A DNA stretch of 64,000 nucleotides from an uncultured virus (IMG/VR IMGVR_UViG_3300031787_000018) (Duplodnaviria > Heunggongvirae > Uroviricota > Caudoviricetes), in the IMG/VR virus record IMGVR_UViG_3300031787_000018, positions 1 to 64,000 of that record; one strand, given 5' to 3'. The translations under genes and the position numbers were made by a program. Of the stretch, positions 15,969-47,354 are shown in pieces; position 1 is the stretch's first letter; each line of letters opens with the position of its first letter. The notes under the pieces are model-generated. The model was given only the letters and a program-made list of their open reading frames with translations. It searched no databases and was not told the DNA's origin.

Positions 15969-16946
15969 ATGAATAAATATTACGAAATATTAGGCATTAA
16001 ACCCGGAGCCTCTAAAGAAGAAATTAAAAAGGCGTGGAAAAAGAAGAGTTTGGAGTATCATCCTGATAGAAACCCATCCGAAGATGCCACAACCAAGATA
16101 CAAGAAATAAATGAAGCCTATGAAATTTTAATAGGTAAAAAACAACCACCAAGAGAAGAAATACCTAATAAAGGTGGTTTTGGTGGTAACCCATTTAATA
16201 ATCCTTTTAATAACCCTTTTGCTGGGTTTAGAATGAAATCTAGACCCATTAGTATACTGGTTAATGTAACATTAGAAGATATTTTTCACGGTGTTAACAA
16301 AAATATAAAATTTAATGTTAATAAAACTTGTAAAACATGTCAGGGTAATGGTGGTAACACCACAACATGTACACATTGTAATGGAAGAGGTGGTAAAATA
16401 GAATACCACCAAGCTATGGGTATGCAAACAATGATAATGTGTAGTCATTGTGGTGGTTCTGGACAAATGAGGGTTGATACTTGTGGTACATGTCACGGTG
16501 CTGGCATTATAAACCATATAGAAAGTTTTGATTTAAAAATACCCAAAGGACTAACCGAAGGTGGTAGATTAATTATACAAGGTTTGGGGGCTGAAGGTCC
16601 TAACTTGGAAAGGGGCGACGTAGTTGTCAATTTTAATATACAACCCCACCCAAAATTCCAATTGGAAGGTTTAAATTTACATAAAACAGAAGAATTACCT
16701 TTTGTTGATATGATATTAGGTAAAGAAATTGAAATAGAAAGTTTTAGTGGTAAGTTTAAAGTTAATATACCTGAATATTGTGAAAGTAACAAAGTCATAA
16801 GATTAAAAGGCCAGGGTTTAATTGACGAGGATACAGGTATTACAGGAGACTTATATGTTAAATTAACACCAAAAGTACCAAAAAATATAACAGATAGAGA
16901 AAAAGAATTGTTACAAGAACTTAGGAGCTCAATCAATTTTTCGTGA
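15969..16946 (+). CDS. dnaJ: DnaJ chaperone
   Basis: J domain with HPD, G/F region, four CxxCxGxG repeats, C-terminal GDLYV. Confidence 0.95.
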   Translation: MNKYYEILGIKPGASKEEIKKAWKKKSLEYHPDRNPSEDATTKIQEINEAYEILIGKKQPPREEIPNKGGFGGNPFNNPFNNPFAGFRMKSRPISILVNVTLEDIFHGVNKNIKFNVNKTCKTCQGNGGNTTTCTHCNGRGGKIEYHQAMGMQTMIMCSHCGGSGQMRVDTCGTCHGAGIINHIESFDLKIPKGLTEGGRLIIQGLGAEGPNLERGDVVVNFNIQPHPKFQLEGLNLHKTEELPFVDMILGKEIEIESFSGKFKVNIPEYCESNKVIRLKGQGLIDEDTGITGDLYVKLTPKVPKNITDREKELLQELRSSINFS

Positions 16947-18201: not shown

Positions 18202-18244
18202 TTGACATTTAAATAAACTTTTGTATATTTGTATCATATTTATT
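18202..18244 (+). promoter_or_regulatory. promoter of tRNA cluster 1
   Basis: TTGACA 18202, TATATTTG 18224, then ATATTTAT; similar to the promoters at 28594 and 33336. Confidence 0.75.
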
Positions 18245-18274
18245 AAACACAAAAAATTATATAGTAAACTCACC

Positions 18275-18364
18275 ATGACAAAGGCGACAACATACATTGT
18301 TTTAACTCACAGAGAGGAGAGAGAACGTTATCTGACTAACAGTCGGAGTGGATGTCGTATATAG
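18275..18364 (+). CDS. attenuator leader peptide 1 (Glu/Arg sensor), MTKATTYIVLTHREERERYLTNSRSGCRI
   Basis: AGA GAG GAG AGA GAA CGT run, followed by a terminator and then tRNA-Glu and tRNA-Arg. Confidence 0.8.
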   Translation: MTKATTYIVLTHREERERYLTNSRSGCRI

Positions 18365-18388
18365 TCATGTCTCTATATATCAAGATAT

Positions 18389-18416
18389 AAACCCCGATTA
18401 AGAGTCGGGGTTTTTT
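18389..18416 (+). terminator. attenuator terminator 1
   Basis: AAACCCCGATT-AAG-AGTCGGGGTTT+T; competing AGTCGGAGT at 18341-18349. Confidence 0.85.
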
Positions 18417-18471
18417 ATTTTGGCCAATAAATAAAAAATTTATACTTTTGTAAAAGTTCTTTGATAAACAA

Positions 18472-18543
18472 GCTCCCGTCGTCTAAAGGCAAGGACACAT
18501 CTCTTTCACAGATGAAATACGGTTTCAAGATCCGTCGGGAGTA
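18472..18543 (+). tRNA. tRNA-Glu(TTC)
   Basis: acceptor GCTCCCG/CGGGAGT; anticodon arm CATCT-CTTTCAC-AGATG. Confidence 0.85.
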
Positions 18544-18548
18544 CAAAT

Positions 18549-18622
18549 GGTTCCGTAACTCAATAGGATAGAGTAACTACCTTCTAAGTAGTAAGTTACA
18601 GGTTCGATCCCTGTCGGAATCA
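18549..18622 (+). tRNA. tRNA-Arg(TCT)
   Basis: GGTTCCG/CGGAATC; ACTAC-CTTCTAA-GTAGT; GGTTCGATCC. Confidence 0.92.
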
Positions 18623-18711
18623 CAAAAAAAGTGATAAAAAATTTATAAAGCGTATTGACAGAAGAGGTTTTTATCACTAGTATTAACAAACAAAAACGAT
18701 ATAGTTCTTTA

Positions 18712-19231: not shown

Positions 19232-20842
19232 ATGACAAAGTTCAAATCAAAAGCAGTGGAAAATTTTGACGGTGGTATTTCTTATACCTTAAACCCATTG
19301 GATACATTACGTATCGTGGCAGCATCATCTATCTTTGGTGAACCATCTTATTACAGAGGTTCTCACGACAAACCATCTAACTTATCTACGTTAAAGACGT
19401 ATGACGTGTTAGGTTTGTACAAAGACCCAAGTGATACAACTACTGATGTTTTCACTAAGGCTATCGACGAGGCTTTAGACTATGACTTCAAGGCAACCCT
19501 TGAGTTAGCTAAGACTCTTCGTCACGAACACTTCATGAGGTTAAACCCAGCGGTTATCTTCATTAGAGCGTCTCAACACCCAAAGAGGGTTGAATTTAAC
19601 GAAGCAAACCCAGGTTTGATGAAACAATACGGTTTGGACATTGTTGGTCGTCCTGATGACATCACCAACCAATTTGATTACTACATGTTCTTAAACGGTT
19701 CTAAGAATGGTTTACCATCTATCGTTAAGAGGACATGGGCTGAGAAGTTGGCGTCTTTCACCAAGTACCAAATCAAGAAATATAAGTCAAAGTCATTAAT
19801 TGACTTGGTTCGTATTTCTCACGCACACTCTGAAGTTATCGATGAGTTAATGAAGACTGGTGACGTGGCTGTTTCTGAAACTGAAACAACTTGGGAATCA
19901 CTTAGGTCTCAAGGTAAGACTTGGAAGGAAATTCTTAACACAATTAAGGTTTCACACATGGCTTTACTTAGGAACTTAAGGGGTATTTTCACTGAGGTGA
20001 ATGATACTGAAGTGGCTAAGAAGGTTTTAACTGACCTTAAGGCAGGTGTTAAGTTTGGTAAGCAATTCCCATTCCGTTACTACACAGCTTACAAGGAAAT
20101 CGATAAGGTTTCTATAAACCACAAGGGTATGATACTTGACGCTTTACAAGAGTGTCTTGACATCTCTATCGAAAACTTCCCTAAGTTAAAGGGTAAGGTG
20201 GCTTGTTTATCAGATAACTCTGGTTCAGCTTGGGGTACAATGACCTCTGAGTATGGTACAACCCATATTGCTGAAATTGCTAACTTATCATCTATCATCA
20301 CAGCTTTATGTTCTGATGAAGGATATGTCGGTGTCTTTGGTGAAAGATTGAGTTTAAAACCTGTTTCTAAAAGAGACGGTATTATTACTCAGTTGGAAGA
20401 AACTTGTAAGAGAGGTAAGTCTCAAGGACAATCTTGTGAACACGGTATTTGGTTATTCTTACGTGAAGCAATCGACACTAAAACTCACTATGATACTATC
20501 TTTATTTATAGTGACATGCAGGCAGGACACGGTGGTCTTTACGGTACAAGTGTAAGCCGTGGTGACGTTCACTCTAGAGGTGGAAGTTATGTAGACGTAC
20601 TTAAAATGGTACAAGAATACCGTAAGAAGGTTAACCCAAAGGTTAACGTATTCACAGTCCAAGTGGCTGGATACAACAACTCTGTTGTACCTGAAAACCT
20701 TTACAGGGGTTCAGTACTTGGGGGTTGGACTGGTAAGGAAGCCTTATACGCTAGTGAGGTAATCAAGACTTGGGATGAAATTGAGTCTAACGACAAGGTT
20801 ACATCTGAGGTTGAAGTTACTGAACAAGTAGTACAATCTTAA
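19232..20842 (+). CDS. rsr: Ro60/Rsr TROVE-domain RNA-binding protein with vWA domain
   Basis: FGEPSYY, MALLRNLRGI, QFPFRYYTAY, MIDAS DNSGSA, IYSDMQ. Confidence 0.92.
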   Translation: MTKFKSKAVENFDGGISYTLNPLDTLRIVAASSIFGEPSYYRGSHDKPSNLSTLKTYDVLGLYKDPSDTTTDVFTKAIDEALDYDFKATLELAKTLRHEHFMRLNPAVIFIRASQHPKRVEFNEANPGLMKQYGLDIVGRPDDITNQFDYYMFLNGSKNGLPSIVKRTWAEKLASFTKYQIKKYKSKSLIDLVRISHAHSEVIDELMKTGDVAVSETETTWESLRSQGKTWKEILNTIKVSHMALLRNLRGIFTEVNDTEVAKKVLTDLKAGVKFGKQFPFRYYTAYKEIDKVSINHKGMILDALQECLDISIENFPKLKGKVACLSDNSGSAWGTMTSEYGTTHIAEIANLSSIITALCSDEGYVGVFGERLSLKPVSKRDGIITQLEETCKRGKSQGQSCEHGIWLFLREAIDTKTHYDTIFIYSDMQAGHGGLYGTSVSRGDVHSRGGSYVDVLKMVQEYRKKVNPKVNVFTVQVAGYNNSVVPENLYRGSVLGGWTGKEALYASEVIKTWDEIESNDKVTSEVEVTEQVVQS

Positions 20843-28593: not shown

Positions 28594-28640
28594 TTGACAA
28601 GTAATAAACTTTTACTATCTTTGTATCATATTTATTAACA
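28594..28640 (+). promoter_or_regulatory. promoter of tRNA cluster 2 (47-nt block identical to 33336-33382)
   Basis: TTGACAAGTAATAAACTTTTACTATCTTTGTATCATATTTATTAACA. Confidence 0.8.
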
Positions 28641-28657
28641 GTAACAGAATTAAACAA

Positions 28658-28750
28658 ATGAAGACTTTAACAAACATATTATTCGTGATGACACTAACGG
28701 TGTTATTTCAGTTTACACAAACTGAACTCGGGTTCTTATGTCTAAGTTAA
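28658..28750 (+). CDS. attenuator leader peptide 2 (Gln/Phe/Met/Thr/Val/Leu sensor), MKTLTNILFVMTLTVLFQFTQTELGFLCLS
   Basis: 15 consecutive codons from the downstream tRNA set; antiterminator CTCGGGTTCTT 28727-28737. Confidence 0.85.
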   Translation: MKTLTNILFVMTLTVLFQFTQTELGFLCLS

Positions 28751-28778
28751 TCATTTAATATATTAACAAATTTAGAAG

Positions 28779-28806
28779 AACCCGAGAAAAACTCTCGGGT
28801 TTTTTT
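28779..28806 (+). terminator. attenuator terminator 2
   Basis: AACCCGAGA-AAAAC-TCTCGGGTT followed by T-run. Confidence 0.88.
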
Positions 28807-28815
28807 ATTTTATAT

Positions 28816-28889
28816 TATCCCGTCGCCTAATTGGCATGGCACTAGATTTTGACTCTAGCATAGTACAGGTTCGAACCCTGTCGGGATAA
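28816..28889 (+). tRNA. tRNA-Gln(TTG)
   Basis: TATCCCG/CGGGATA; CTAGA-TTTTGAC-TCTAG. Confidence 0.9.
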
Positions 28890-28919
28890 CCGAAGAAGTT
28901 ATTTGACATATTATATTTT

Positions 28920-28992
28920 GTGGAAGTTACCAAGTTGGTCAAGGTGTTGGTCTGAAAAACCAATTATATGAGTTCGATTCTCATCTTCCACA
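28920..28992 (+). tRNA. tRNA-Phe(GAA)
   Basis: GTGGAAG/CTTCCAC; TTGGT-CTGAAAA-ACCAA. Confidence 0.9.
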
Positions 28993-29108
28993 CAACAAGC
29001 CGTAGGTATGAATAAGTATATATATATATATATAATATTATTTTAATAACTTATTTAATCATTAATTAAAATAATCATCTAAAGTTCGATAATTTTTATC
29101 GATATATA

Positions 29109-29957
29109 ATGATATTTATTACTATGAAATGGTATAAAAAAGATATTGAAACATTGATTGAATTAATTCGTCAAGGTAACACCTATGATGAAATAGGTGT
29201 TATAATGAAAAGAAGTAGATCTTCTATTAAAGCTAAATTATTAAAATTGGGTGAGACATATAGAAAGTATTCTGAAAACAATTATTATGAAAAGGTTAAT
29301 TGTAAAAATTGTGGTATAGAATTTAAATCTTTAATGTCTAATAAACAAAAATTTTGTAACCATACATGTGCTGCAAGTTATAATAATGTAATTAGAGGTA
29401 AAAGAAGTCAAGAAACAAAAAATAAAATAAGTAAATCATTAAAAAGTAAAAAAAAGGAGAAATATGATTTAAATCCTAAAAAATGTATGAAATGTGGTGA
29501 ACATATACCATATAGTAAATGGTGTAATTATAGAAAAAATTGTGACGAATGTAACATTATTATTCGTAAAAATATGGGTAGGATTTTAGGTCAAAAAACC
29601 TCACAAACCAAAATAAAAAGATCGAAAGACGAGATAAATTTATATGAGTTATGTAAGATGAGTTTTAACGATGTTGAACATAATAAAATAATAAGTTCTG
29701 GATGGGATGCTGATATTGTTATAAATGATTATAAAATACTTATACTATGGAATGGTCCTTGGCATTATAAACAGTTACCATTAAAAAACCATAGTTTAAA
29801 TCAAGTACAAACTAGAGATAAAATAAAACAAAAATTGTTTGAAAGTTTAGGTTGGAGAGTTATAATATTTGAAGATAGATATTACACACCATATACAGCT
29901 TTTGATTATTTAAAAAATATAATTCGGGATATATCTCCCCACTCTCATAAGGTGTAG
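29109..29957 (+). CDS. putative free-standing homing endonuclease (Zn-ribbon plus Vsr/DUF559-like nuclease)
   Basis: CxxC pairs; DADIVI...ILWNGPWHY...RDKIK...GWRVIIFED; lies inside a tRNA cluster. Confidence 0.7.
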   Translation: MIFITMKWYKKDIETLIELIRQGNTYDEIGVIMKRSRSSIKAKLLKLGETYRKYSENNYYEKVNCKNCGIEFKSLMSNKQKFCNHTCAASYNNVIRGKRSQETKNKISKSLKSKKKEKYDLNPKKCMKCGEHIPYSKWCNYRKNCDECNIIIRKNMGRILGQKTSQTKIKRSKDEINLYELCKMSFNDVEHNKIISSGWDADIVINDYKILILWNGPWHYKQLPLKNHSLNQVQTRDKIKQKLFESLGWRVIIFEDRYYTPYTAFDYLKNIIRDISPHSHKV

Positions 29958-30047: not shown

Positions 30048-30121
30048 TCCGGTGATACTCTGAAGGTAAGGGTGCTCGCCTTGTAAGCGAGATTTAGTCG
30101 GTTCGATCCCGACCACCGGAT
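30048..30121 (+). tRNA. tRNA-Thr(TGT)
   Basis: TCCGGTG/CACCGGA; CTCGC-CTTGTAA-GCGAG. Confidence 0.85.
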
Positions 30122-30126
30122 CAAAA

Positions 30127-30197
30127 GCCCTGATGACGTAATGGTAGCGTACTAATTTTACATGTTAGCAGCAAAGGTTCAATTCCTTTTCAGGGCA
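30127..30197 (+). tRNA. tRNA-Val(TAC)
   Basis: GCCCTGA/TCAGGGC; CTAAT-TTTACAT-GTTAG. Confidence 0.85.
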
Positions 30198-30203
30198 CAA
30201 AAA

Positions 30204-30280
30204 GCCTTCGTGACGTAATTGGTAACCGTGTTAGTTTTAGAAACTAAATTTTGTGAGTTCAAATCTCACCGAAGGCACCA
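30204..30280 (+). tRNA. tRNA-Leu(TAG), short variable loop
   Basis: GCCTTCG/CGAAGGC-ACCA; TTAGT-TTTAGAA-ACTAA. Confidence 0.88.
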
Positions 30281-30328
30281 AAAATTTTGATAATAAATAA
30301 ACTTTTACTATATTTGTATCAACAAAAT

Positions 30329-30402
30329 GTTCCCATGGCGAAATTGGTAAACGCAACGAGTTTAAGCCTCGTATGTTCTCGGTTCAAATCCGGGTGGGAA
30401 TA
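30329..30402 (+). tRNA. tRNA-Leu(TAA), short variable loop
   Basis: GTTCCCA/TGGGAAT; ACGAG-TTTAAGC-CTCGT. Confidence 0.88.
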
Positions 30403-30405
30403 CAA

Positions 30406-30897
30406 AACATTGACGATATGGCGTGTAGGTGTAACTCGTTATAACACCGAGGGGAACATATGGTATACGAGAAACCATTGTGGTGTGTCTGAAGGGTCAA
30501 TGTTGATATGGGGTGAGAATCTTAGTTGGCCACTAAGAAAATATGGAAGGGTGTCGCGTTACCCAATCGGCTCAAATCCGATCCACTCCACTTTGGGTTA
30601 TTTTTTGACCAAAAAATAATGAGTAAGAGATACTCAAGAGTTGGGCTACTGGTCTATATCGCGTGGCAGTCTAGATGAGTGATGAGACTTTAAACTTCAC
30701 CCCTTGGGTTAAAGGAGAAACATCGAACTCCTCCATTGTACGGTTGACAGGTTTTTATGTGGTAAGACACTAATGTAAACTCATAGAATTACCGATTAGA
30801 GACAAAGGGCTCTTCTGCAGGTGTTATGAGATGGTTCTCGAAACAGTCAGAGAAACCCGTTAAAATCTAATCCTCAAAGTAATCTCATTTGGGGTAA
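30406..30897 (+). ncRNA. unidentified structured RNA region, including a tRNA-like element at 30509-30590
   Basis: GC-richer and gene-free; helices AACATTGAC/GTCAATGTT, TGGGGTG/CACTCCA, T-arm-like ATCGG-CTCAAAT-CCGAT. Confidence 0.5.
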
Positions 30898-30901
30898 AAA
30901 T

Positions 30902-31001
30902 AGTCAGGTGGCGTAATTGGTAACCGCTATAGGGTTGAGGCGTGCTAACTACCTATATAAATTGTTTTTAAACAATGCAGGTTCGAGTCCTGTCCTGACT
31001 A
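30902..31001 (+). ncRNA. tRNA-like RNA, AGTCAGG family copy 1
   Basis: AGTCAGG/CCTGACT acceptor, D-arm, GCAGGTTCGAGTCCTGT T-arm; extended non-canonical anticodon arm. Confidence 0.75.
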
Positions 31002-31016
31002 CAAAAATAAAGACAT

Positions 31017-31121
31017 ATGGAATATATATTAGGATTTTTAATTGGTATAAGTATTTTTATTATTTTTCATAAACCTATTATTAGAGCTTTAGAAAAATTA
31101 ATCGACATTATCCAAGAATAG
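31017..31121 (+). CDS. small membrane peptide (34 aa)
   Basis: MEYILGFLIGISIFIIFHKPIIRALEKLIDIIQE. Confidence 0.5.
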   Translation: MEYILGFLIGISIFIIFHKPIIRALEKLIDIIQE

Positions 31122-31220
31122 TCAGGTGGTGAAATTGGTAGCCACAGCATATAAGACCATGGGCGTTGTGTTGAAACCTACTGGGGATTAGATTTACAGG
31201 TTCGAGTCCTGTCCTGACTA
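31120..31220 (+). ncRNA. tRNA-like RNA, AGTCAGG family copy 2
   Basis: same acceptor and near-identical T-arm as copy 1; different interior. Confidence 0.75.
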
Positions 31221-31223
31221 CAC

Positions 31224-31440
31224 GAGTCGAGTTGTGTTCGACTAATGTGCTCCCGCATGATGGAAGTGGTGTCACACCCACAGGGACCTGAGCCGATTAC
31301 TTGAATCTAAGTCGGTTGGTTGGTGTACCAGTAACAGGAGGAAGTTAACACACAAGTCCTAACCCCTCACGTAAGTGGGTTGCCGCTGAAGCCTCGAGAA
31401 GCTATTCGGTATTGGGGACAGTCAGAAATGATTGGGCGAA
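31224..31440 (+). ncRNA. unidentified structured RNA
   Basis: GC-rich non-coding stretch; hairpins AGTCGA/TCGACT, GCCGATT/AGTCGGT, CTCAC-GTAA-GTGGG, CAGTCA-GAAA-TGATTG. Confidence 0.45.
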
Positions 31441-31446
31441 AATTAT

Positions 31447-31521
31447 AGTCAGGTGGTAGAATTGTGATTACACCTTGGGACGAATGTCTAGGAGATACAG
31501 GTTCGAATCCTGTCCTGACTA
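31447..31521 (+). ncRNA. tRNA-like RNA, AGTCAGG family copy 3
   Basis: same acceptor and near-identical T-arm; anticodon arm closed by a 4-nt GAAT loop. Confidence 0.75.
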
Positions 31522-32225: not shown

Positions 32226-32275
32226 AAAATACTTGACAGGAGATAAAAATTAATATATAATTGTATCATTAATAT

Positions 32276-32347
32276 CGCGATGAGGGTGTTGGTTCCCCAC
32301 CGGTCTCATAAACCAGGTCCACGGCCGTTCGATTCGGCCCGTCGCCA
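32276..32347 (+). tRNA. tRNA-Met(CAT), initiator-like
   Basis: C1 mismatch in CGCGATG/CGTCGCC; loop CTCATAA; own TTGACA promoter (32233) and terminator, no leader peptide. Confidence 0.75.
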
Positions 32348-32444
32348 CTAAGTCCCCTATAGTATTATAGGGGATTTTTTTTAACATTAAAGACAACTTG
32401 ACAAATTTAACAATCATAACGATATTTATATAAAAAGATATACC

Positions 32445-33023
32445 ATGAGAAATTTTAACGAAGACGATTTTAACAATGAATTTGGTGATGACTTTTTTGG
32501 TCGTTGGGAACGATTTAATGAACGTATGAAAAACGATAGAGATTTTAGACGTGAAATTAATAGATTCCAAAAAGATTTTGAAGAAATGATGCGTATGATG
32601 TCTAAAAATAAAAAAAATGGCATAAATTTATTTGGTTTAAATGATGATATGAGGTTTATACCTTTAAACGATTTTAGGACAAATAATTTTGATGGAATGG
32701 ATATTCCTGAAGATGAAATGGATATTGAAAAAGGTGAGGATGAAAATGGTGAATGGGAAAAAAGAAATTGGGCATCACCTGACGGTTCTGTTTCTTATAC
32801 TTCTTTCACACGTTCATCAGGTATTGAGGATTTTGGTGATAAAATATTTGATAGAGATAAAAACAGAAATATTTTTGACCCTGAAAAAGAAAAATATTTA
32901 AAGTTGGCTAAATTAAAAAAGGCTTTGGATTATTGTGTTGAACAAGAAAAGTATGAAAAAGCCGCTGAACTTAAAAAAGAAATTGATAAAATAACAGCTT
33001 CTTTAAAAAAGAAAGAGGAATAA
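32445..33023 (+). CDS. hypothetical protein with C-terminal UVR (UvrB/C) motif
   Basis: LKKALDYCVEQEKYEKAAELKKEI. Confidence 0.75.
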   Translation: MRNFNEDDFNNEFGDDFFGRWERFNERMKNDRDFRREINRFQKDFEEMMRMMSKNKKNGINLFGLNDDMRFIPLNDFRTNNFDGMDIPEDEMDIEKGEDENGEWEKRNWASPDGSVSYTSFTRSSGIEDFGDKIFDRDKNRNIFDPEKEKYLKLAKLKKALDYCVEQEKYEKAAELKKEIDKITASLKKKEE

Positions 33024-33092
33024 AAACTATAAGTAATATTTTTTTACTGTTTTTTCTTATAGTTAATTTTAAATAATCATACATGGACAGTA

Positions 33093-33323
33093 GTGATGAA
33101 CCGTATAAACAAAGAAAGACTCGCAACCATAAGCTTAATTTTGGCAATGTTCTTCAACCCTCTAGGGTTCGACGCACTATTCAACGCTGTAATGACATTG
33201 ACAGGTTCTTATTGGATTACGGATATAATATTTTACCTTATATCACTATCGTTTCTTGGGTTATATTTCTTATTACAAGGTATTAACCCAATAAAACACG
33301 TAAAAGAAAAAATAAAAAAATAA
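33093..33323 (+). CDS. small membrane protein
   Basis: two hydrophobic helices; FFNPLGFDALF. Confidence 0.6.
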   Translation: MMNRINKERLATISLILAMFFNPLGFDALFNAVMTLTGSYWITDIIFYLISLSFLGLYFLLQGINPIKHVKEKIKK

Positions 33324-33335
33324 TTTAAAAAATAG

Positions 33336-33382
33336 TTGACAAGTAATAAACTTTTACTATCTTTGTATCATATTTATTAACA
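33336..33382 (+). promoter_or_regulatory. promoter of tRNA cluster 3 (identical to 28594-28640)
   Basis: exact 47-nt repeat containing TTGACA, TATCTTTG and ATATTTAT. Confidence 0.8.
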
Positions 33383-33400
33383 AACAAAACAATTAAAGAA

Positions 33401-33496
33401 ATGAAAAATTGGCATAACATATCGAGTATACATAGTAATCGAATTAATAGTTCGGTGTACACATGGTGTGTTTTGTCCAATCAAGATAATACTTAA
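33401..33496 (+). CDS. attenuator leader peptide 3 (Ser/His/Asn/Ile/Trp/Arg sensor), MKNWHNISSIHSNRINSSVYTWCVLSNQDNT
   Basis: 16 consecutive codons from the downstream tRNA set; antiterminator TGGTGTGTTTT 33464-33474. Confidence 0.87.
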   Translation: MKNWHNISSIHSNRINSSVYTWCVLSNQDNT

Positions 33497-33521
33497 TGGG
33501 AATTAAGTTTTTTGTACAAGG

Positions 33522-33556
33522 AAAACCCACCACATGAAAATGTCGGTGGGTTTTTT
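33522..33556 (+). terminator. attenuator terminator 3
   Basis: AAAACCCACC-ACAT-GAAA-ATGT-C-GGTGGGTTTT+TT. Confidence 0.85.
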
Positions 33557-33584
33557 GTTATTTGACATATTGGTAAATTAAAAT

Positions 33585-33673
33585 GGAGAGTTAAGCAGAT
33601 GCATTGGAGCGTCGACCAGCTTTGAAACCTGGGTCTCGTTAAGTCGGGTGGGGGTCGGGTCCTCAGCTCTCCG
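33585..33673 (+). tRNA. tRNA-Ser(TGA)
   Basis: GGAGAGT/GCTCTCC-G; loop TTTGAAA; long variable arm; atypical T-loop. Confidence 0.75.
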
Positions 33674-33679
33674 CAAAAT

Positions 33680-33768
33680 GGTGTTAGAGTCGGATATTGG
33701 TTAGCCGAGCTTGTCTGTGAAACAAGTGTTCTTTAGTGAACGTGCGGGTTCAATCCCCGTCTATCACC
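33680..33768 (+). tRNA. tRNA-His(GTG) with long variable arm
   Basis: G-1:C73; CTTGT-CTGTGAA-ACAAG. Confidence 0.85.
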
Positions 33769-33775
33769 CAAATAC

Positions 33776-33850
33776 GGGTCTGTAGTACTAATTGGATAAA
33801 ACTTTCGGCTGTTAACCGAGATGATGTGAGTTCGAGTCTCACTGGACCCG
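33776..33850 (+). tRNA. tRNA-Asn(GTT) 1
   Basis: GGGTCTG/TGGACCC; TTCGG-CTGTTAA-CCGAG. Confidence 0.85.
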
Positions 33851-33857
33851 CTGATTT

Positions 33858-33933
33858 GGACTGTAAGCTGACAAGGGGTAGCTGTGGCCTGTTAAGCCAA
33901 GGGTGGTGGGTTCGATTCCCACACAGTCCGCCA
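33858..33933 (+). tRNA. tRNA-Asn(GTT) 2
   Basis: GGACTGT/ACAGTCC-GCCA; TGGC-CTGTTAA-GCCA. Confidence 0.85.
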
Positions 33934-33936
33934 AAC

Positions 33937-34008
33937 GGGGGTATAGCTCAGTGGTAGAGCAGAGAGCTGTTAACTCTAAGGTCGTAGGTTCAATCCCTTC
34001 TACCCCCG
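33937..34008 (+). tRNA. tRNA-Asn(GTT) 3
   Basis: GGGGGTA/TACCCCC; canonical D-arm; AGAG-CTGTTAA-CTCT. Confidence 0.9.
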
Positions 34009-34015
34009 CAAATAT

Positions 34016-34088
34016 AGTATCGTGTCTGAACGGTTTAGGAACTATCCTGATAAGATAGGAAAAGTGGGTTCAACTCCCACCGATACTA
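34016..34088 (+). tRNA. tRNA-Ile(GAT)
   Basis: AGTATCG/CGATACT; CTATC-CTGATAA-GATAG. Confidence 0.88.
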
Positions 34089-34095
34089 CTAAAAT

Positions 34096-34169
34096 ACATC
34101 TGAGACCATATAGGAATTGGTACTGGCTTCCAAACCCAGTTGTTGCAGGTTCGAATCCTGTCAGATGTG
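34096..34169 (+). tRNA. tRNA-Trp(CCA)
   Basis: ACATCTG/CAGATGT-G; anticodon loop TTCCAAA. Confidence 0.85.
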
Positions 34170-34174
34170 CAAAA

Positions 34175-34264
34175 GGAAGATAGGTAAATATTGGTTTGTT
34201 ACAGCATCCTGCTAAGATGTCCCGGGTAATACCGGTGAGGGTTCAATTCCCTTGTCTTCCGCCA
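34175..34264 (+). tRNA. tRNA-Ser(GCT)
   Basis: GGAAGAT/GTCTTCC-GCCA; GCATC-CTGCTAA-GATGT; long variable arm. Confidence 0.9.
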
Positions 34265-34267
34265 AAT

Positions 34268-34355
34268 GGAGAGTTAAGGAAGGGAGTGGTTCCCTCGCTT
34301 GTTTGGAAAACAAGAACCCATTAAGTTGGGCACAGTTCGACTCTGTATCTCTCCG
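34268..34355 (+). tRNA. tRNA-Ser(GGA)
   Basis: GGAGAG/CTCTCC-G; CTTGT-TTGGAAA-ACAAG; long variable arm. Confidence 0.85.
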
Positions 34356-34365
34356 CTAATAACAT

Positions 34366-34437
34366 GGGCGTGTCATATAAGGGTTATTATGCGAAGCTTA
34401 TACCTTCGTCAAGGTGGCTCAACTCCACCCACGCCTA
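34366..34437 (+). tRNA. tRNA-Ile(TAT)
   Basis: GGGCGTG/CACGCCT-A; CGAAG-CTTATAC-CTTCG. Confidence 0.8.
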
Positions 34438-34442
34438 CAAAT

Positions 34443-34517
34443 GGTTCCATAGTGTAATTGGATAACACGCAAAGCTACGAACTTTGAGACTTGAGGGTTC
34501 AAATCCTTCTGGAACTA
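34443..34517 (+). tRNA. tRNA-Arg(ACG)
   Basis: GGTTCCA/TGGAACT; CAAAG-CTACGAA-CTTTG. Confidence 0.9.
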
Positions 34518-34522
34518 CTAAC

Positions 34523-34548
34523 AAACCCACCCCATGGTGGGTTTTTTT
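34523..34548 (+). terminator. terminator ending tRNA cluster 3
   Basis: AAACCCACC-CCAT-GGTGGGTTT followed by T-run. Confidence 0.85.
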
Positions 34549-34584
34549 ATTTACATATGCCCCTAGTTTAAGTATAATTTATAT

Positions 34585-35103
34585 ATGATTAAAAATAGTA
34601 TTCCTGAACATAGAATGGGTGTACATGTTTCTGTACCGATAGAAGATATTAGACAGAACATGGATTTTGGTAATATAATCCAACCTAGATGGTTATTAAC
34701 AATACCACACAATCATGGTTTATATCAGTATTTAGTAAAAACAGATGGTCCATCAGTGGTAACAGTTGGTAATATTGATTTTGGTGTACCAAGATTGGAA
34801 TGGCAACCATTAAAATTAACCGTTGTAAGATGTGATGATTATGACACCACAAATACTATAACTTATACCAGTGGTACAATTACATTAGGTGATAGTCCTT
34901 TAGATGTAATCAGAAATTGGATGATGAGTTATGAAAAGAAAAATATTAGGTTGGAAAAAATAAACCATAATGGTTTATGGCATGAAAGGTTTGATATAAG
35001 AGGTTCATTTATAACAGAAATGAATCATGAGGTAATTATGGATAGGGAGATCAGTCAAATGGAGATAACAATAAATTTTGACCATTTACAGTATATATTA
35101 TGA
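34585..35103 (+). CDS. divergent T4 gp19-like tail tube paralog
   Basis: EWQPLKLTV...IRNWM...EKKNIRLEK...ERFDIRGSFITE...EITINFD pattern. Confidence 0.55.
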   Translation: MIKNSIPEHRMGVHVSVPIEDIRQNMDFGNIIQPRWLLTIPHNHGLYQYLVKTDGPSVVTVGNIDFGVPRLEWQPLKLTVVRCDDYDTTNTITYTSGTITLGDSPLDVIRNWMMSYEKKNIRLEKINHNGLWHERFDIRGSFITEMNHEVIMDREISQMEITINFDHLQYIL

Positions 35104-35570
35104 AAGAAAAAATTATGAGCAAGGTGTTGAAAAAGATAATAAAAGAATCGTTATTGTTAGAATCTATAGATATTTTTGATATAAATAACATACCTTGTGA
35201 GTTTAATATACATACTGAAAATAATAATAACATAACAGTAATATTCACACCAAATTCAGAAGACTTTTACCAATTAAGTATTGAAATAAAAGATGACGGT
35301 TGTTATTATGTTATATTCGGTGTTATTATTGATGATGTAGTTAGAACATCTTTGACTTTAAATAGTGATTACAGACTTAAAGTTTTATCTACTGTGTTCT
35401 CTTTAATTAAATACTATACAGATAAGTATAACGTTGAATGTTTGGAAATGGATATAGATGATGAAATGAGATTAAAATTATATAATCTTTATTTTAGTAA
35501 ACATTTTAAAAATTTCCAAGTAGATAAGTTAGGTAACAAAGTGAGATTAGTAAAAAATGATAAACTTTAA
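35100..35570 (+). CDS. hypothetical protein with LKKIIKE motif
   Basis: 156-aa ORF. Confidence 0.65.
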   Translation: MKEKIMSKVLKKIIKESLLLESIDIFDINNIPCEFNIHTENNNNITVIFTPNSEDFYQLSIEIKDDGCYYVIFGVIIDDVVRTSLTLNSDYRLKVLSTVFSLIKYYTDKYNVECLEMDIDDEMRLKLYNLYFSKHFKNFQVDKLGNKVRLVKNDKL

Positions 35571-36603: not shown

Positions 36604-36822
36604 TAATCCTTATATTTGTATAAGAAATAAAAATACATAACATAAATTTAACATAAGCGTTGACAAATAAATAAAACTTTATTAATTTTGTCCATATTTA
36701 TTTATAGAAGTTGTGGTTCTGATGGGTTTCAGGAACCACCCCAAAAAAGACAGATACAGAACGGGGACTGTTTACAACGAAAACCCCACAAAAAAAACTA
36801 TAAACAAATTAAAACTAAAAAA

Positions 36823-36930
36823 ATGAGAAAGAATTACACATATCAACCGAGTACACCGAAAGCAGGGAAAGTAGCCGATAAAGGCTGTGATACCTTGAAT
36901 GGTTGTGGTATGTACAATTCTGTCTCATAA
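36823..36930 (+). CDS. attenuator leader peptide 4 (Tyr/Pro/Asp/Gly/Ala/Cys/Lys sensor), MRKNYTYQPSTPKAGKVADKGCDTLNGCGMYNSVS
   Basis: 11 of codons 12-23, plus Y5, Y7 and P9, match downstream tRNAs; antiterminator GGTTGTGG 36901-36908. Confidence 0.85.
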   Translation: MRKNYTYQPSTPKAGKVADKGCDTLNGCGMYNSVS

Positions 36931-36954
36931 GAATATATAGAGAAGAGTTTAAAT

Positions 36955-36991
36955 AACCCCCACAACCGATAAAAAAGTTGTGGGGGTTTTT
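36955..36991 (+). terminator. attenuator terminator 4
   Basis: AACCCCCACAAC-CGATAAAAAA-GTTGTGGGGGTT+TTT. Confidence 0.88.
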
Positions 36992-37005
36992 GTTTATAGT
37001 TATAC

Positions 37006-37087
37006 CCGTAAGTTGAACAGGTGGTGAGTTCCGTTGACTGTAGATCAACCGTTTTAAACTGTGGGGGTTCGATTCCCTCCTTACGGA
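37006..37087 (+). tRNA. tRNA-Tyr(GTA), C1:G72
   Basis: CCGTAAG/CTTACGG-A; GTTGA-CTGTAGA-TCAAC. Confidence 0.88.
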
Positions 37088-37107
37088 CAAAAACGTTCAT
37101 TGAAAAT

Positions 37108-37231
37108 AAAAAGAATAGAAGCGGTGGTATTGGTTACATCGATAATGGATATCAATTTGACAGCAAATCAAACGTTGTGGGTTCGAGTCCCATGATAAAA
37201 AACACCGATATTTTTATTCTCTGTTCTTTTT
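37108..37231 (+). ncRNA. Y-RNA-like RNA 3 with tRNA-like module
   Basis: AGAATAGA/TCTGTTCT and GTATTGGT/ACCGATAT stems; GAAGCGGT and TACATC motifs; D-, anticodon- and T-arm-like (GTGGGTTCGAGTCCCAT) hairpins inside. Confidence 0.75.
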
Positions 37232-37237
37232 AAATAT

Positions 37238-37316
37238 ATGGGGTTGGAGGAGTCAGGTTTTCCTCGCTTGGTTTGGGACCAAGAGACTTGCGTGGGTTCA
37301 AATCCCACACCCCATA
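37238..37316 (+). tRNA. tRNA-Pro(TGG)
   Basis: ATGGGGT/ACCCCAT; CTTGG-TTTGGGA-CCAAG. Confidence 0.88.
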
Positions 37317-37322
37317 CAAAAC

Positions 37323-37399
37323 GGATACGGCGCATAACGGCTGGTGTACCTGACTGTCTATCAGGTTTTAAGAGGGTTCGACTCCCTTCGTATCCGCCA
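37323..37399 (+). tRNA. tRNA-Asp(GTC)
   Basis: GGATACG/CGTATCC-GCCA; CCTGA-CTGTCTA-TCAGG. Confidence 0.88.
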
Positions 37400-37401
37400 A
37401 T

Positions 37402-37472
37402 GCGGGATTAGCATAAAGTTAATGTACTAGTCTTCCAAACTAGTGAAGTCGGATAGTTACCGGCATCCCGCT
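37402..37472 (+). tRNA. tRNA-Gly(TCC), atypical T-loop
   Basis: GCGGGAT/ATCCCGC-T; CTAGT-CTTCCAA-ACTAG. Confidence 0.82.
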
Positions 37473-37482
37473 CTAAAATTAT

Positions 37483-37557
37483 GGGCTACATCCCGAAGGC
37501 AGGGCACTTGATTTGCACTCAAGTGAAAACGGTAGGGTTCGATTCCCTCGTGGTCCA
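37483..37557 (+). tRNA. tRNA-Ala(TGC)
   Basis: G3:U70 in GGGCTAC/GTGGTCC; CTTGA-TTTGCAC-TCAAG. Confidence 0.85.
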
Positions 37558-37571
37558 CAAATATAATAAAA

Positions 37572-37662
37572 GGGTCTGTGGTGTGAGTGGTTTAAACCAC
37601 CTGTCTGCAAAACAGGGATGACAATTAATTTTGTTACGTCAGTTCGAATCTGACCAGACCCT
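37572..37662 (+). tRNA. tRNA-Cys(GCA) with long variable arm
   Basis: GGGTCTG/CAGACCC-T (U73); CCTGT-CTGCAAA-ACAGG. Confidence 0.85.
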
Positions 37663-37674
37663 CTAAAAAATAAA

Positions 37675-37749
37675 GACCTCGTAACTTAGTTGGTTTAAAG
37701 TGCTAATCTTTTAAATTAGAAATCGTGAGTTCGAATCTCACCGGGGTCA
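37675..37749 (+). tRNA. tRNA-Lys(TTT)
   Basis: GACCTCG/CGGGGTC; CTAAT-CTTTTAA-ATTAG. Confidence 0.9.
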
Positions 37750-37750
37750 C

Positions 37751-46930: not shown

Positions 46931-47321
46931 GGGGGTGACTTGGAATTGATTGGCTACATTAGTTATTGTAAAAGCATGTCGAGACTTGTTTGTAGGCTCG
47001 TTAAACCAACAATCAAAATTTTAAATGGCGACATTTTCGCAGACGCTACTGTAGGTCACTTTGTGACTGAAGGTGCAGAGGTTGTAGCCTAATTAGATTA
47101 GGGTACACAACGGGGTTGGATTACCTAGGAACAGAAGTCCAAAAAAGGGTGTTACCACTACCACAAAAGGGTAAAGTCAAACATGGAATGTGTCAACTAA
47201 GTCCATGGGAGAACTAAAAGATGAAGTTGTATATTTTGGGTGGTTAGAAAACCACATCCTAAACATGTAGAAGACTTTAATTCATTAGAACAAGACGGCG
47301 GTTCGACCCCGCTCACCTCCA
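46931..47321 (+). ncRNA. ssrA: tmRNA
   Basis: GGGGGTG/CACCTCC-A acceptor with G3:U; GCGGTTCGACCCCGC T-arm; tag ORF 47027-47092 after TTAAAT. Confidence 0.93.
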
Positions 47322-47354
47322 CTTTAGAAATTTATTAACCTAAAAATCGAAAAA

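Follow-up and report, generated by a model that had tools for sequence, protein, structure and literature searches.

A short open reading frame at 33401–33496, upstream of an array of 11 tRNA genes (33584–34518), was identified in the window, a 64,000-nucleotide stretch of the genome of an uncultured tailed phage. Judging from its sequence, this arrangement probably places the phage tRNA operon under ribosome-mediated (leader-peptide) transcription attenuation. This interpretation was proposed in a preliminary description of the same DNA, and it is borne out by computational tests of the promoter, the leader, the alternative hairpins, their covariation and seven unit types, in each of which the leader matches the array. 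Leader-peptide attenuation is a textbook mechanism that is known for genes involved in amino acid synthesis; here, this logic appears to be applied to tRNA genes, in a virus. The elements of the unit described below are on the plus strand.

The array consists of ten clear tRNA genes and a weak one. The ten clear genes (33682–34518) encode His(GUG), three copies of Asn(GUU), Ile(GAU), Trp(CCA), Ser(GCU), Ser(GGA), Ile(UAU) and Arg(ACG). Eight of them (His, the three Asn, Ile(GAU), Trp, Ser(GCU) and Arg(ACG)) are called by ARAGORN with default settings, and the calls for Ser(GGA) and Ile(UAU) appear at the 95% threshold only (in loci L029 and L104, the letters of which are identical to those of the window). 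The remaining gene, a low-scoring tRNA-Ser(UGA)-like sequence with an aberrant T-loop at about 33584–33675, is considered weak because it is called at the 80% threshold only; it has no match in Rfam, even at E<=1, and its homologs in G002, L014 and L048 have normal scores. Altogether, the tRNA genes of the phage clearly cover 19 amino acids, with Met represented by a weak candidate only, and most of these genes are split among four leader-headed units.

The leader ORF, a short frame that precedes the tRNA genes in the 5' leader RNA, starts with an ATG at 33401 and ends with a TAA at 33494–33496 (31 codons plus stop, translation MKNWHNISSIHSNRINSSVYTWCVLSNQDNT*). Codons 3–18 (33407–33454), hereinafter the regulatory run, read N W H N I S S I H S N R I N S S, and on re-reading, the letters are identical to the codon list given in the preliminary description. 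These codons are restricted to Asn, Trp, His, Ile, Ser and Arg, which are the six amino acids of the downstream tRNA array, and all six are present in the leader (6/6). Each of the seven unit types analyzed likewise has a cluster of codons that match the tRNAs of its own operon (7/7). The run includes several rare codons, namely TCG (twice), CGA and ATA; in the long ORFs of the phage, TCG accounts for 4% of the Ser codons and CGA for 3.6% of the Arg codons. Because the six amino acids comprise 28.8% of the residues in the long ORFs of the genome, a 16-codon in-set run has a probability of about 2e-9 per start. The run at 33407 is the longest in the genome (16 codons vs 10 for the runner-up, all six frames, 132,425 bases), and in 200,000 random 30-residue windows drawn from the phage's own proteins, the number of in-set residues stayed below 20 and no in-set run was as long as 16; the leader itself has 10 out-of-set residues among the 30 that follow the Met. 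A match in composition so far beyond chance argues against the possibility that nothing is regulated here, with the hairpin upstream of the tRNAs serving for leaky insulation or as a processing signal, and with an ORF that is an unrelated micro-gene or a chance frame. We consider this possibility very improbable, and further evidence that bears on it is given below.

The conservation pattern of the leader shows signs of coding. Nine distinct homologous leaders are 96, 93 or 87 nt long, so that all indels among them are in frame, these lengths being multiples of three. The third-position changes AAT/AAC and AGC/AGT are synonymous, replacements within the regulatory run always yield N, W, H, I, S or R, and codons 27–30, at the tail of the ORF, are free to vary. 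These observations bear on a second alternative, namely a ribosome-independent RNA switch, in which the leader RNA would bind tRNAs in a T-box-like manner, or a phage protein, and the reading frame would be incidental. Such a switch could employ the alternative hairpins described below with any factor that holds their first strand, and the phage does encode RNA-related proteins, for example, a TROVE/Ro-like protein at 19232–20842. However, the triplets that match the array all belong to one ATG-to-stop frame, the indels and substitutions in the homologs respect this frame and its amino acid set, the in-set run stops where a ribosome would start to cover the second strand in 7/7 unit types, and no T-box or other known leader family is detectable at E<=1. 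We therefore regard a switch that ignores the ribosome as highly unlikely.

The leader RNA can fold into trp-style alternative hairpins, 1:2, 2:3 and 3:4 (fold z-score −4.19). Region 1 (33408–33433), the 5' strand of the 1:2 hairpin, or anti-antiterminator, lies within the regulatory codons. The 1:2 hairpin (33408–33481, −23.3 kcal/mol) is the minimum-energy fold of 33401–33485, and its pairing over the nine homologs is 79.5%, vs 33–53% with slid partners. Region 2 (33455–33481), with the core TGGTGTGTTTT (33464–33474), has either region 1 or the 5' arm of the terminator as its partner. The proposed pairing of this core with AAAACCCACCA (33522–33532) holds at 10 of the 11 positions as originally claimed, with a single, central U.C mismatch that is kept in 9/9 homologs. 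In these nine diverged sequences, this antiterminator is 85.9% paired, vs 28–61% with slid partners, and shows compensatory changes at two pairs (U-A to A-U and G-C to A-U). The antiterminator thus shares a strand with the terminator but is weak in the present unit, where pairing as good as that of the real sequence is reached by 16 of 200 mononucleotide shuffles of the leader. Its energy is −10.2 kcal/mol vs about −19 for the terminator; because the terminator wins at equilibrium, the switch must be kinetic. Among eight unit types, the letters of region 2 and of the terminator arm differ and complementarity is kept, with only 5 of 40,320 swaps as good as the true pairing. Such covariation between regions 2 and 3 would not be expected of an unregulated insulator or processing hairpin.

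The leader lies between a promoter and an intrinsic terminator. A consensus scan identified a promoter at 33336–33365, which consists of TTGACA (33336–33341), a 16-nt spacer and TATCTTTG (33358–33365) and is followed by a conserved GTATCATATTTATTAAC. This promoter resembles the −33/−7 promoters of Bacteroidota. A promoter box of about 50 nt is common to the tRNA units at 18202, 28594, 30287 and 33336, with a looser copy at 36660, and is present in related phages as well. The attenuator terminator, which comprises regions 3 and 4 (33522–33556; AAAACCCACCACAT / ATGT-C-GGTGGGTTTT, with six T at 33551–33556), is an intrinsic terminator located between the leader and the tRNA genes, and its hairpin (33522–33554) has an energy of −18.6 to −20.3 kcal/mol. 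A promoter directly ahead of a strong terminator would be of little use without a switch, and the layout is not confined to this locus: a terminator hairpin is found between the leader and the first tRNA in 49 units of eight leader families, which also speaks against the absence of regulation. Direct reading of the interval between the terminator and the first tRNA found no −10/−7 element at promoter spacing, that is, no promoter-like element that could provide another route to transcription of the tRNAs. The operon is closed by a second terminator at 34523–34551 (AAACCCACCCCATGGTGGGTTT, then a T-run). Searches with the Rfam leader families (Trp, His, Leu, Thr and Phe) produced no match in the leader region; Phe_leader (22.4 bits) and Leu_leader (19.6 bits) hits, against gathering scores of 55 and 50, respectively, both fall on the final terminator (34471–34550). 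The Rfam T-box riboswitch model has no match at E<=1 in 33300–34600.

The positions at which a stalled ribosome would open the switch were modeled by masking a ribosome onto the nascent RNA. The ribosome was assumed to cover positions −15 to +11 relative to the A site, and the result depends on this assumption. Without a ribosome, mask folding gives P(1:2) = 0.97 and P(antiterminator) = 0.00, and with the A site on codons 3–14, P(antiterminator) is 0.76–0.88. With the A site on codons 15–18, the 1:2 hairpin re-forms under plain masking, and these codons are permissive only under the steric assumption that the helix cannot close around the ribosome. When pairs across the ribosome are forbidden, the permissive window and the in-set run end together in 7/7 unit types, and in-set codons make up 107 of the 140 codons inside the window vs 32 of 74 outside (Fisher 2e-6).

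Given these features, the attenuator is predicted to operate as follows. Transcription would start at the TTGACA/TATCTTTG promoter, and a ribosome would begin translating the 31-codon leader as RNA polymerase approaches the terminator at 33522–33556. When aminoacyl-tRNAs for all six amino acids of the array are abundant, the ribosome would pass codons 3–18 and cover region 2 or, alternatively, leave, so that the 1:2 hairpin re-forms. With region 2 either covered or engaged in 1:2, the 5' arm of the terminator would be free, the 3:4 hairpin would form and transcription would stop before the tRNAs. When decoding of any codon of the run is slow, several of these codons (TCG, CGA and ATA) being rare or wobble-read, the ribosome would sit on region 1; 33464–33474 could then pair with 33522–33532, the terminator would be blocked and the 11 tRNA genes would be transcribed. 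Because the product relieves the signal, this would amount to negative-feedback control over the supply of exactly the operon's own tRNAs. The start of transcription, the translation of the leader and termination at 33556 are predictions from sequence; we likewise infer which way the switch works in vivo and what causes the shortage, for which the codon demand of the phage, loss of host tRNAs and amino acid starvation are candidates.

Seven unit types were available for testing the correspondence between leaders and arrays, namely the four in the window and types F, G and H from related uncultured phages. Each of the three sister units in the window has a leader matched to its own array (Glu and Arg in unit A; Gln, Phe, Thr, Val and Leu in unit B; Tyr, Pro, Asp, Gly, Ala, Cys and Lys in unit D), and the same holds for four further unit types in related uncultured phages. 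In all seven types tested, the leader includes every amino acid of its own array (2/2, 5/5, 6/6, 7/7, 13/13, 10/10 and 10/10), and among the 5040 possible re-pairings of leaders and arrays, the true pairing alone attains the observed fit. We treat the seven unit types, rather than the 49 loci, as independent because homologs within a type are close relatives. In type F, tRNA-Ser(UGA) is present in 3/4 arrays with Ser at leader codon 17 and in 0/2 arrays with Gln; this trend agrees with co-variation of leader and array, but the arrays are too few to establish it, and L076 is an exception.

The specificity of these matches also bears on a third alternative, an attenuator that responds to a general signal, such that any slowing of translation or amino acid starvation would open it and the codons would not report particular tRNAs. 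A leader that is read by a ribosome senses aminoacyl-tRNA in any case, and sequence alone cannot separate tRNA shortage from amino acid shortage; the cause of slow decoding is invisible to such a leader. The preliminary description stated that all 16 codons of the run have a reader in the array and took this match to reach the isoacceptor level, thus favoring the sensing of tRNAs over that of amino acids alone. The first statement stands as a count (16/16 decodable), but 15.3 are expected under synonymous resampling, and the reader of TCG, Ser(UGA), is the weakest call in the array. Because the array decodes nearly every codon of its own six amino acids, the count is uninformative, and the second statement loses its footing in the present unit, where the comparison has no power and CGA is the only informative codon. 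Furthermore, the leaders of types F and G list 10–13 amino acids, which makes them close to general sensors. On the other side, each leader fits its own array and not the others, and a general response would not require that one genome maintain four leaders of different composition. Across the seven unit types, 95 of 106 codons are decodable under strict wobble, vs 82.5 expected, with 0 of 5000 resamplings as high, an excess that depends on the wobble rule (260/5000 and 2/5000 under two looser rules). The Arg codons track the anticodon box of the array, with CGN used in 3/3 arrays that have Arg(ACG) only and AGA in 2/3 of the codons for Arg(UCU). Thus, there is some support for isoacceptor-level matching across unit types, and we consider a purely general signal unlikely.

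A more far-reaching reading of the attenuator, which we propose tentatively, is that the phage possesses self-contained control of tRNA supply: each of the four operons would list its own tRNAs in the leader in slow-read codons, shortage would open the matching operon only, and accumulation of the tRNAs would shut it. The shortfall of host tRNAs might arise from phage codon demand, host shut-off or tRNA-cleaving host defences. If this is the case, a transcription attenuator that produces the same molecule it senses would be described here for the first time.

Metatranscriptomes provide some data on the RNA itself. In 4/4 libraries, a single contig spans the leader and the terminator and extends into the array, from position 33353 or upstream to 34476 in three libraries and from 33402 to 34476 in X18. 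Contigs that cross the terminator are compatible with read-through, and also with DNA carry-over; they would be expected of a leaky, unregulated terminator as well. All four contigs stop at 34476, with 34508–34574 uncovered. The loose ends at 33353–33382 continue into the leader of unit B, which marks these contig ends as breaks of the assembly at the promoter repeat. None of the contig ends is readable as a transcript end, and contigs do not reveal transcript levels.

Leader-peptide attenuators are known for the trp, his, leu, thr and pheA genes, and multivalent leaders for ilvGMEDA and ilvBN of enterobacteria. The phage unit shares with the attenuators of amino acid operons the promoter, the short leader with regulatory codons, some of them rare, the mutually exclusive 1:2, 2:3 and 3:4 hairpins and the intrinsic terminator and, with the ilv and thr leaders, the presence of several amino acids in one leader. 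In contrast to these systems, its leader lists six amino acids (as many as 13 in a related unit); it is phage-borne, with four units partitioning most of the phage tRNA genes; and because the controlled genes encode tRNAs rather than biosynthetic enzymes, its product acts on the signal directly. The phage leader has no sequence or covariance-model similarity to the leader families in Rfam. The pheM leader of the E. coli pheST operon, which encodes phenylalanyl-tRNA synthetase, is a known case of leader-peptide attenuation and, like the phage unit, acts on the translation machinery instead of on amino acid synthesis; however, this leader responds to one amino acid only, and the controlled gene is cellular and encodes a protein. 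T-box riboswitches also use antitermination to report the state of a specific tRNA and control translation-related genes; however, they need no ribosome, their specifier codon and T-box sequence making direct contact with uncharged tRNA, whereas the phage unit has many in-frame codons within an ORF.

Arrays of tRNA genes in T4-like and other large phages are thought to supplement or replace host tRNAs, and the present array resembles them as a cluster of phage-encoded tRNA genes. The present findings suggest that phages regulate such arrays through codon-by-codon decoding speed instead of expressing them constitutively, and offer a handle on why large phages carry tRNAs and when these are needed. 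An abstract-level literature search yielded no account of a leader-peptide attenuator ahead of phage tRNA arrays, and PMC2965389, in the part of its text that was covered, has no mention of Bacteroidetes or tRNA operons. The attenuator, if real, would extend ribosome-mediated attenuation to phages with Bacteroidota-like promoters. Since the leaders predict the downstream tRNAs, the idea is testable by survey, and the units are candidate sensors of the supply of specific aminoacyl-tRNAs.

The distribution of the unit was assessed in several sequence collections. The 49 units could be assigned to eight leader families, with a tRNA directly downstream in 44; the unrelated ORFs at L066, L086, L096 and L107 were left out of this count. 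Ten loci (L001–L004, L019, L023 and L029 from IMG/VR; L077, L103 and L104 from metagenomes) were omitted as non-independent because their letters are the same as those of the window (318-kb contigs). The IMG/VR promoter-core scan (21 loci) found no unit at nine loci (L010, L012, L015, L017, L018, L021, L022, L025 and L026) and a different, longer leader at L027. In the metagenome scan, 67 of 101 loci have no tRNA within 2.1 kb, many being only 336 bases long or ordinary promoters of other organisms, and a single match at L088 was dismissed as spurious. The genome scan found the unit in 1 of 38 loci, L155, an 8-kb contig binned into a MAG; as this is the sole unit, the searched pattern gave no evidence of the system in cellular genomes and pointed to no host. 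A search with the flanking protein (34585–35103) returned only the window's own copy. A distant DNA search of GenBank phages with 33000–35200 returned 549 records; among the matches listed, query cover is at most 6%, over tRNA genes, and no annotated phage relative is present. The unit is kept in phages in which the neighboring protein is only 52% identical.

Two small elements complete the picture of the locus. An AU-rich hairpin at 33490–33514 (ACTTAATGGGAATTAAGT), which includes the leader stop codon and is followed by TTTTTT, may serve as a pause site; among the nine homologs, it is present in the window and L117 only. Downstream of the attenuator terminator, a conserved box, TTTGACATATTGG (33561–33573), is located 21–23 nt upstream of the first tRNA. 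This box is found in 20 of 34 distinct terminator-to-tRNA spacers, including all of types C (the present unit), F and G, with a weaker match in one A-type spacer.

Unit C, which consists of a leader ORF (33401-33496), a terminator (33522-33556) and a tRNA array (33584-34518), is likely to be a leader-peptide attenuator of a tRNA operon. This reading, already proposed in the preliminary description, is well supported in silico by the composition of the leader, the match between leader and array, the alternative hairpins and covariation. A consensus scan identifies a promoter-like site upstream of the leader ORF (TTGACA at 33336, a 16-nt spacer and TATCTTTG). The ORF comprises 31 codons (MKNWHNISSIHSNRINSSVYTWCVLSNQDNT and a stop) and is followed by the attenuator terminator, a hairpin with a six-T run (-18.6 to -20.3 kcal/mol). 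The tRNA genes are arranged head-to-tail between this terminator and a second one (34523-34544) that closes the array.

Codons 3-18 of the leader (AAT TGG CAT AAC ATA TCG AGT ATA CAT AGT AAT CGA ATT AAT AGT TCG) were identical, upon re-reading of 33401-33496, to those listed originally, and the observation of 16 consecutive Ser, His, Asn, Ile, Trp or Arg (hereinafter in-set) codons is confirmed. These six amino acids account for 28.8% of the residues in 100 long ORFs of the genome (132,425 bases in the virus record, 29.8% G+C). Across all six frames of the genome, there are 30 in-set runs of at least 8 codons, the longest being the 16-codon run at 33407, with a runner-up of 10. None of the 200,000 random 30-residue windows drawn from the phage's own proteins reached 20 in-set residues or 16 consecutive ones, and only 7.3% of random windows include all six array amino acids, as the leader does. 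Two of the codons in the run are rare in the phage genes, namely TCG (4% of Ser codons) and CGA (3.6% of Arg codons).

Signs of translation are found in nine distinct type C leaders, which are 96, 93 or 87 nt long. All replacements within the run remain in-set (N/H, S/N, I/S, H/N etc.), synonymous changes (AAT/AAC, AGC/AGT) are present, and TCG, CGA and ATA are retained in 9 of 9 sequences; codons 27-30 are variable (K, L, T, A, V, D, I, N).

Of the 11 tRNA genes initially assigned to the array, ten are clear. Default ARAGORN reports His, three Asn(GUU), Ile(GAU), Trp, Ser(GCU) and Arg(ACG), and Ser(GGA) and Ile(UAU) are detected at the 95% threshold in loci letter-identical to the window. The one weak call is Ser(UGA) (~33584-33675), which is recovered only at the 80% threshold and has no Rfam match at E<=1; its homologues in related phages have normal scores. 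The tRNA-His(GUG) gene (33682-33770) is unusual, with 89 nt, a long, class II-like variable arm and only 22 bits in Rfam, and the long form (89-90 nt) is also present in two relatives (L005, L006). A conserved box, TTTGACATATTGG (33561-33573), is located 21-23 nt upstream of the first tRNA and shows no -10 or -7 element at promoter spacing. It is found in 20 of 34 distinct spacers, including all those of types C, F and G and, as a weaker match, one A-type spacer; a box resembling it lies ahead of tRNA-Phe (~28905).

The minimum-energy fold of 33370-33570 (z-score -4.19) contains a long anti-antiterminator hairpin formed by regions 1 and 2 (33408-33481, -23.3 kcal/mol) together with the terminator (3:4). 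The competing antiterminator pairs region 2 (33464-33474) with the terminator 5' arm (33522-33532); the previously noted pairing at 10 of 11 positions was reproduced, with an energy of -10.2 kcal/mol. In an alignment of nine diverged type C leaders (82% mean column identity; in two of the relatives, an adjacent protein shares 52% identity), the antiterminator is 85.9% paired, compared with 28-61% when the partners are slid, and two pairs show double-sided changes (U-A to A-U and G-C to A-U). The corresponding values for the 1:2 hairpin are 79.5% and 33-53%. Among the eight unit types, the sequences of region 2 and the terminator arm vary (CTCGGG, GTTCGGG, CTTAGGG, GGTTGTGG, GGTG...), and the own terminator is the best partner of each leader, with 5 of 40,320 swaps as good. 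In the 19 units examined, region 2 is located 45-91 nt from the ORF start, close to the ORF 3' end in all except one relative (L072).

The nascent RNA was folded to 33540 with a masked ribosome whose footprint was assumed to span -15 to +11 relative to the A site. With no ribosome, P(1:2) is 0.97 and P(antiterminator) is 0.00; placing the A site on any of codons 3-14 raises P(antiterminator) to 0.76-0.88. Under plain masking, the 1:2 hairpin re-forms when the A site is on codons 15-18, which requires the helix to close around the ribosome. If base pairing across the ribosome is disallowed, the permissive window of unit C ends at codon 18-19, and in all seven types it stops where the run of codons in-set for the respective array ends; 107 of 140 codons within the permissive window are in-set vs 32 of 74 outside (Fisher test, 2e-6). 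This geometry is an inference that depends on the assumed footprint and on a steric argument.

Relatives were collected from uncultured phages by a promoter-core scan of IMG/VR and metagenome contigs; GenBank phages yielded tRNA-level matches only. A mechanical parse, with window-identical copies excluded beforehand, gave 53 promoter-ORF-terminator units, of which four with unrelated ORFs (L066, L086, L096, L107) were left out. The 49 units kept form eight leader families (A, 3; B, 10; C, 10; D, 4; F, 13; G, 6; H, 1; T, 2). A tRNA gene directly follows the terminator in 44 of the 49, and 4 of the other 5 are cut by the locus end. The type F leader (MKLVNKQIVKHVIQFCSNWYLRVF...) holds all 13 amino acids of its array (Phe, Ile, Gln, Lys, Val, Tyr, Cys, His, Ser, Arg, Trp, Leu, Asn), and the leaders of types G and H each hold 10 of 10. 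Because homologues within a type are closely related, types rather than loci were counted as independent. For every one of the seven types with known arrays, the best fit of the leader is to its own array; none of the 5040 leader-array re-pairings other than the true one attains the observed summed score (21.2, vs 7.0 for the best of 1854 complete mismatches). In a scan of genomes, the unit turned up on a single short MAG-binned contig (L155) and not in cellular chromosomes. Some units deviate in layout: one (L110) carries a tRNA-like sequence between promoter and leader ORF (~40-145 nt past the promoter), and in two (L032, L053) a 39-codon Lys/Arg-rich ORF (+315 after the promoter) separates the attenuator terminator from the tRNAs.

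It had also been suggested that the match reaches the isoacceptor level and so favours sensing of tRNAs. Unit C alone does not support this suggestion: the array anticodons decode nearly all codons of the six amino acids (16 of 16 leader codons decodable vs 15.3 expected), so that the claim carries no weight there. Across the permissive zones of seven types, the outcome depends on the wobble rules, with 95 of 106 codons decodable under strict wobble vs 82.5 expected (0 of 5000 resamplings as high), 99 vs 94.9 when U34 is additionally allowed to read U in family boxes (260 of 5000), and 104 vs 97.7 when U34 reads all four bases (2 of 5000); the null applies this phage's codon usage to every type and is an approximation. 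CGN codons, which constitute 26.5% of Arg codons, occur in the leaders of 3 of 3 arrays with Arg(ACG) only, and AGA represents 2 of 3 Arg codons with the Arg(UCU) array.

Metatranscriptome libraries from four studies (4 of 4) each contain one contig that extends from the leader across the terminator and into the array. It ends at 34476 throughout and begins at or before 33353 in three libraries and at 33402 in the fourth (X18). These contigs are compatible with read-through transcripts and also with DNA carry-over, and they reflect continuity, not transcript ends or levels.

In its anatomy, unit C corresponds to the classical leader-peptide attenuators and is as such known, the closest systems being the multivalent ilv and thr leaders; it belongs neither to the Rfam leader families nor to the T-box family. 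Unlike the classical systems, the units control tRNA genes, so that their product would act directly on the signal; further differences are the wide range of amino acids in a leader (6 to 13), the viral setting and the partition of most of the tRNA set among four units. The literature searched, at the level of abstracts and in passages of PMC2965389, yielded no account of leader peptides controlling tRNA genes.

The surroundings of unit C show a system, not one isolated oddity. The promoter box of unit C is conserved at the head of further tRNA blocks in the window, three of which have the unit C layout. Unit A (18202-18623) has a leader starting at 18276 that contains REERER, a terminator at 18389-18413, and Glu(UUC) and Arg(UCU). 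Unit B (28594-28993) combines an L/T/F/V/Q-rich leader (start 28658) and a terminator (28773-28807) with Gln and Phe; its array continues at 30048-30403 with Thr, Val and Leu. In three relatives (L028, L090, L101), this array is uninterrupted (Gln, Phe, then Thr, Val, Leu, Leu). In the window, the operon appears to have been split by insertion of a homing-endonuclease gene, the ORF at 29109-29957 (HNH-endonuclease and D5-like matches) located between tRNA-Phe and tRNA-Thr. Unit D (36660-37750) has a Y/P/K/A/G/D/C-rich leader (start 36824) containing PKAGKVADKGCD, a terminator at ~36956-36989, and Tyr, Pro, Asp, Gly, Ala, Cys and Lys. Units A-D partition most phage tRNA genes, and the window blocks jointly provide clear tRNAs for 19 amino acids; Met is covered solely by a low-scoring candidate (32276-32348).

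Several other features were observed in the window. Ahead of the unit D leader ORF is a ~150-nt 5' leader (36700-36820) with segments resembling the arms of its own terminator (GTTGTGG ... CCCCACAA), kept in outline in L075, G001 and G002. Two single-tRNA units have a promoter and lack a leader or attenuator, namely Leu(UAA) (30287-30403), directly behind the shared promoter box, and the low-scoring Met(CAU)-like gene (32233-32377), which is flanked by a perfect TTGACA-17-TATAAT promoter on one side and a terminator on the other. The phage also encodes a sigma-70-family factor with regions 1.2, 2 and 4 (1017-1844), a full-length DnaJ (15969-16946), an RNA-binding TROVE/Ro-like protein (19232-20842) and a tmRNA (46931-47324; 82 bits); next to the tRNA operons, this is an uncommonly well-stocked set of genes for translation and RNA quality control. 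Window-identical sequence is present on ~318 kb contigs from two public collections (L001-L004, L019, L023, L029, L077, L103, L104), so that the 132-kb record may derive from a concatemer or from a longer, jumbo phage genome. Finally, three tRNA-like genes (30902-31001, 31121-31222, 31447-31521) share near-identical acceptor and T arms and have aberrant or enlarged anticodon regions, for which low-threshold ARAGORN gives CTA, TGA (Ser) and a four-base anticodon; the spacers among them (30404-30900, 31223-31446) are G+C-rich, apparently structured RNA.
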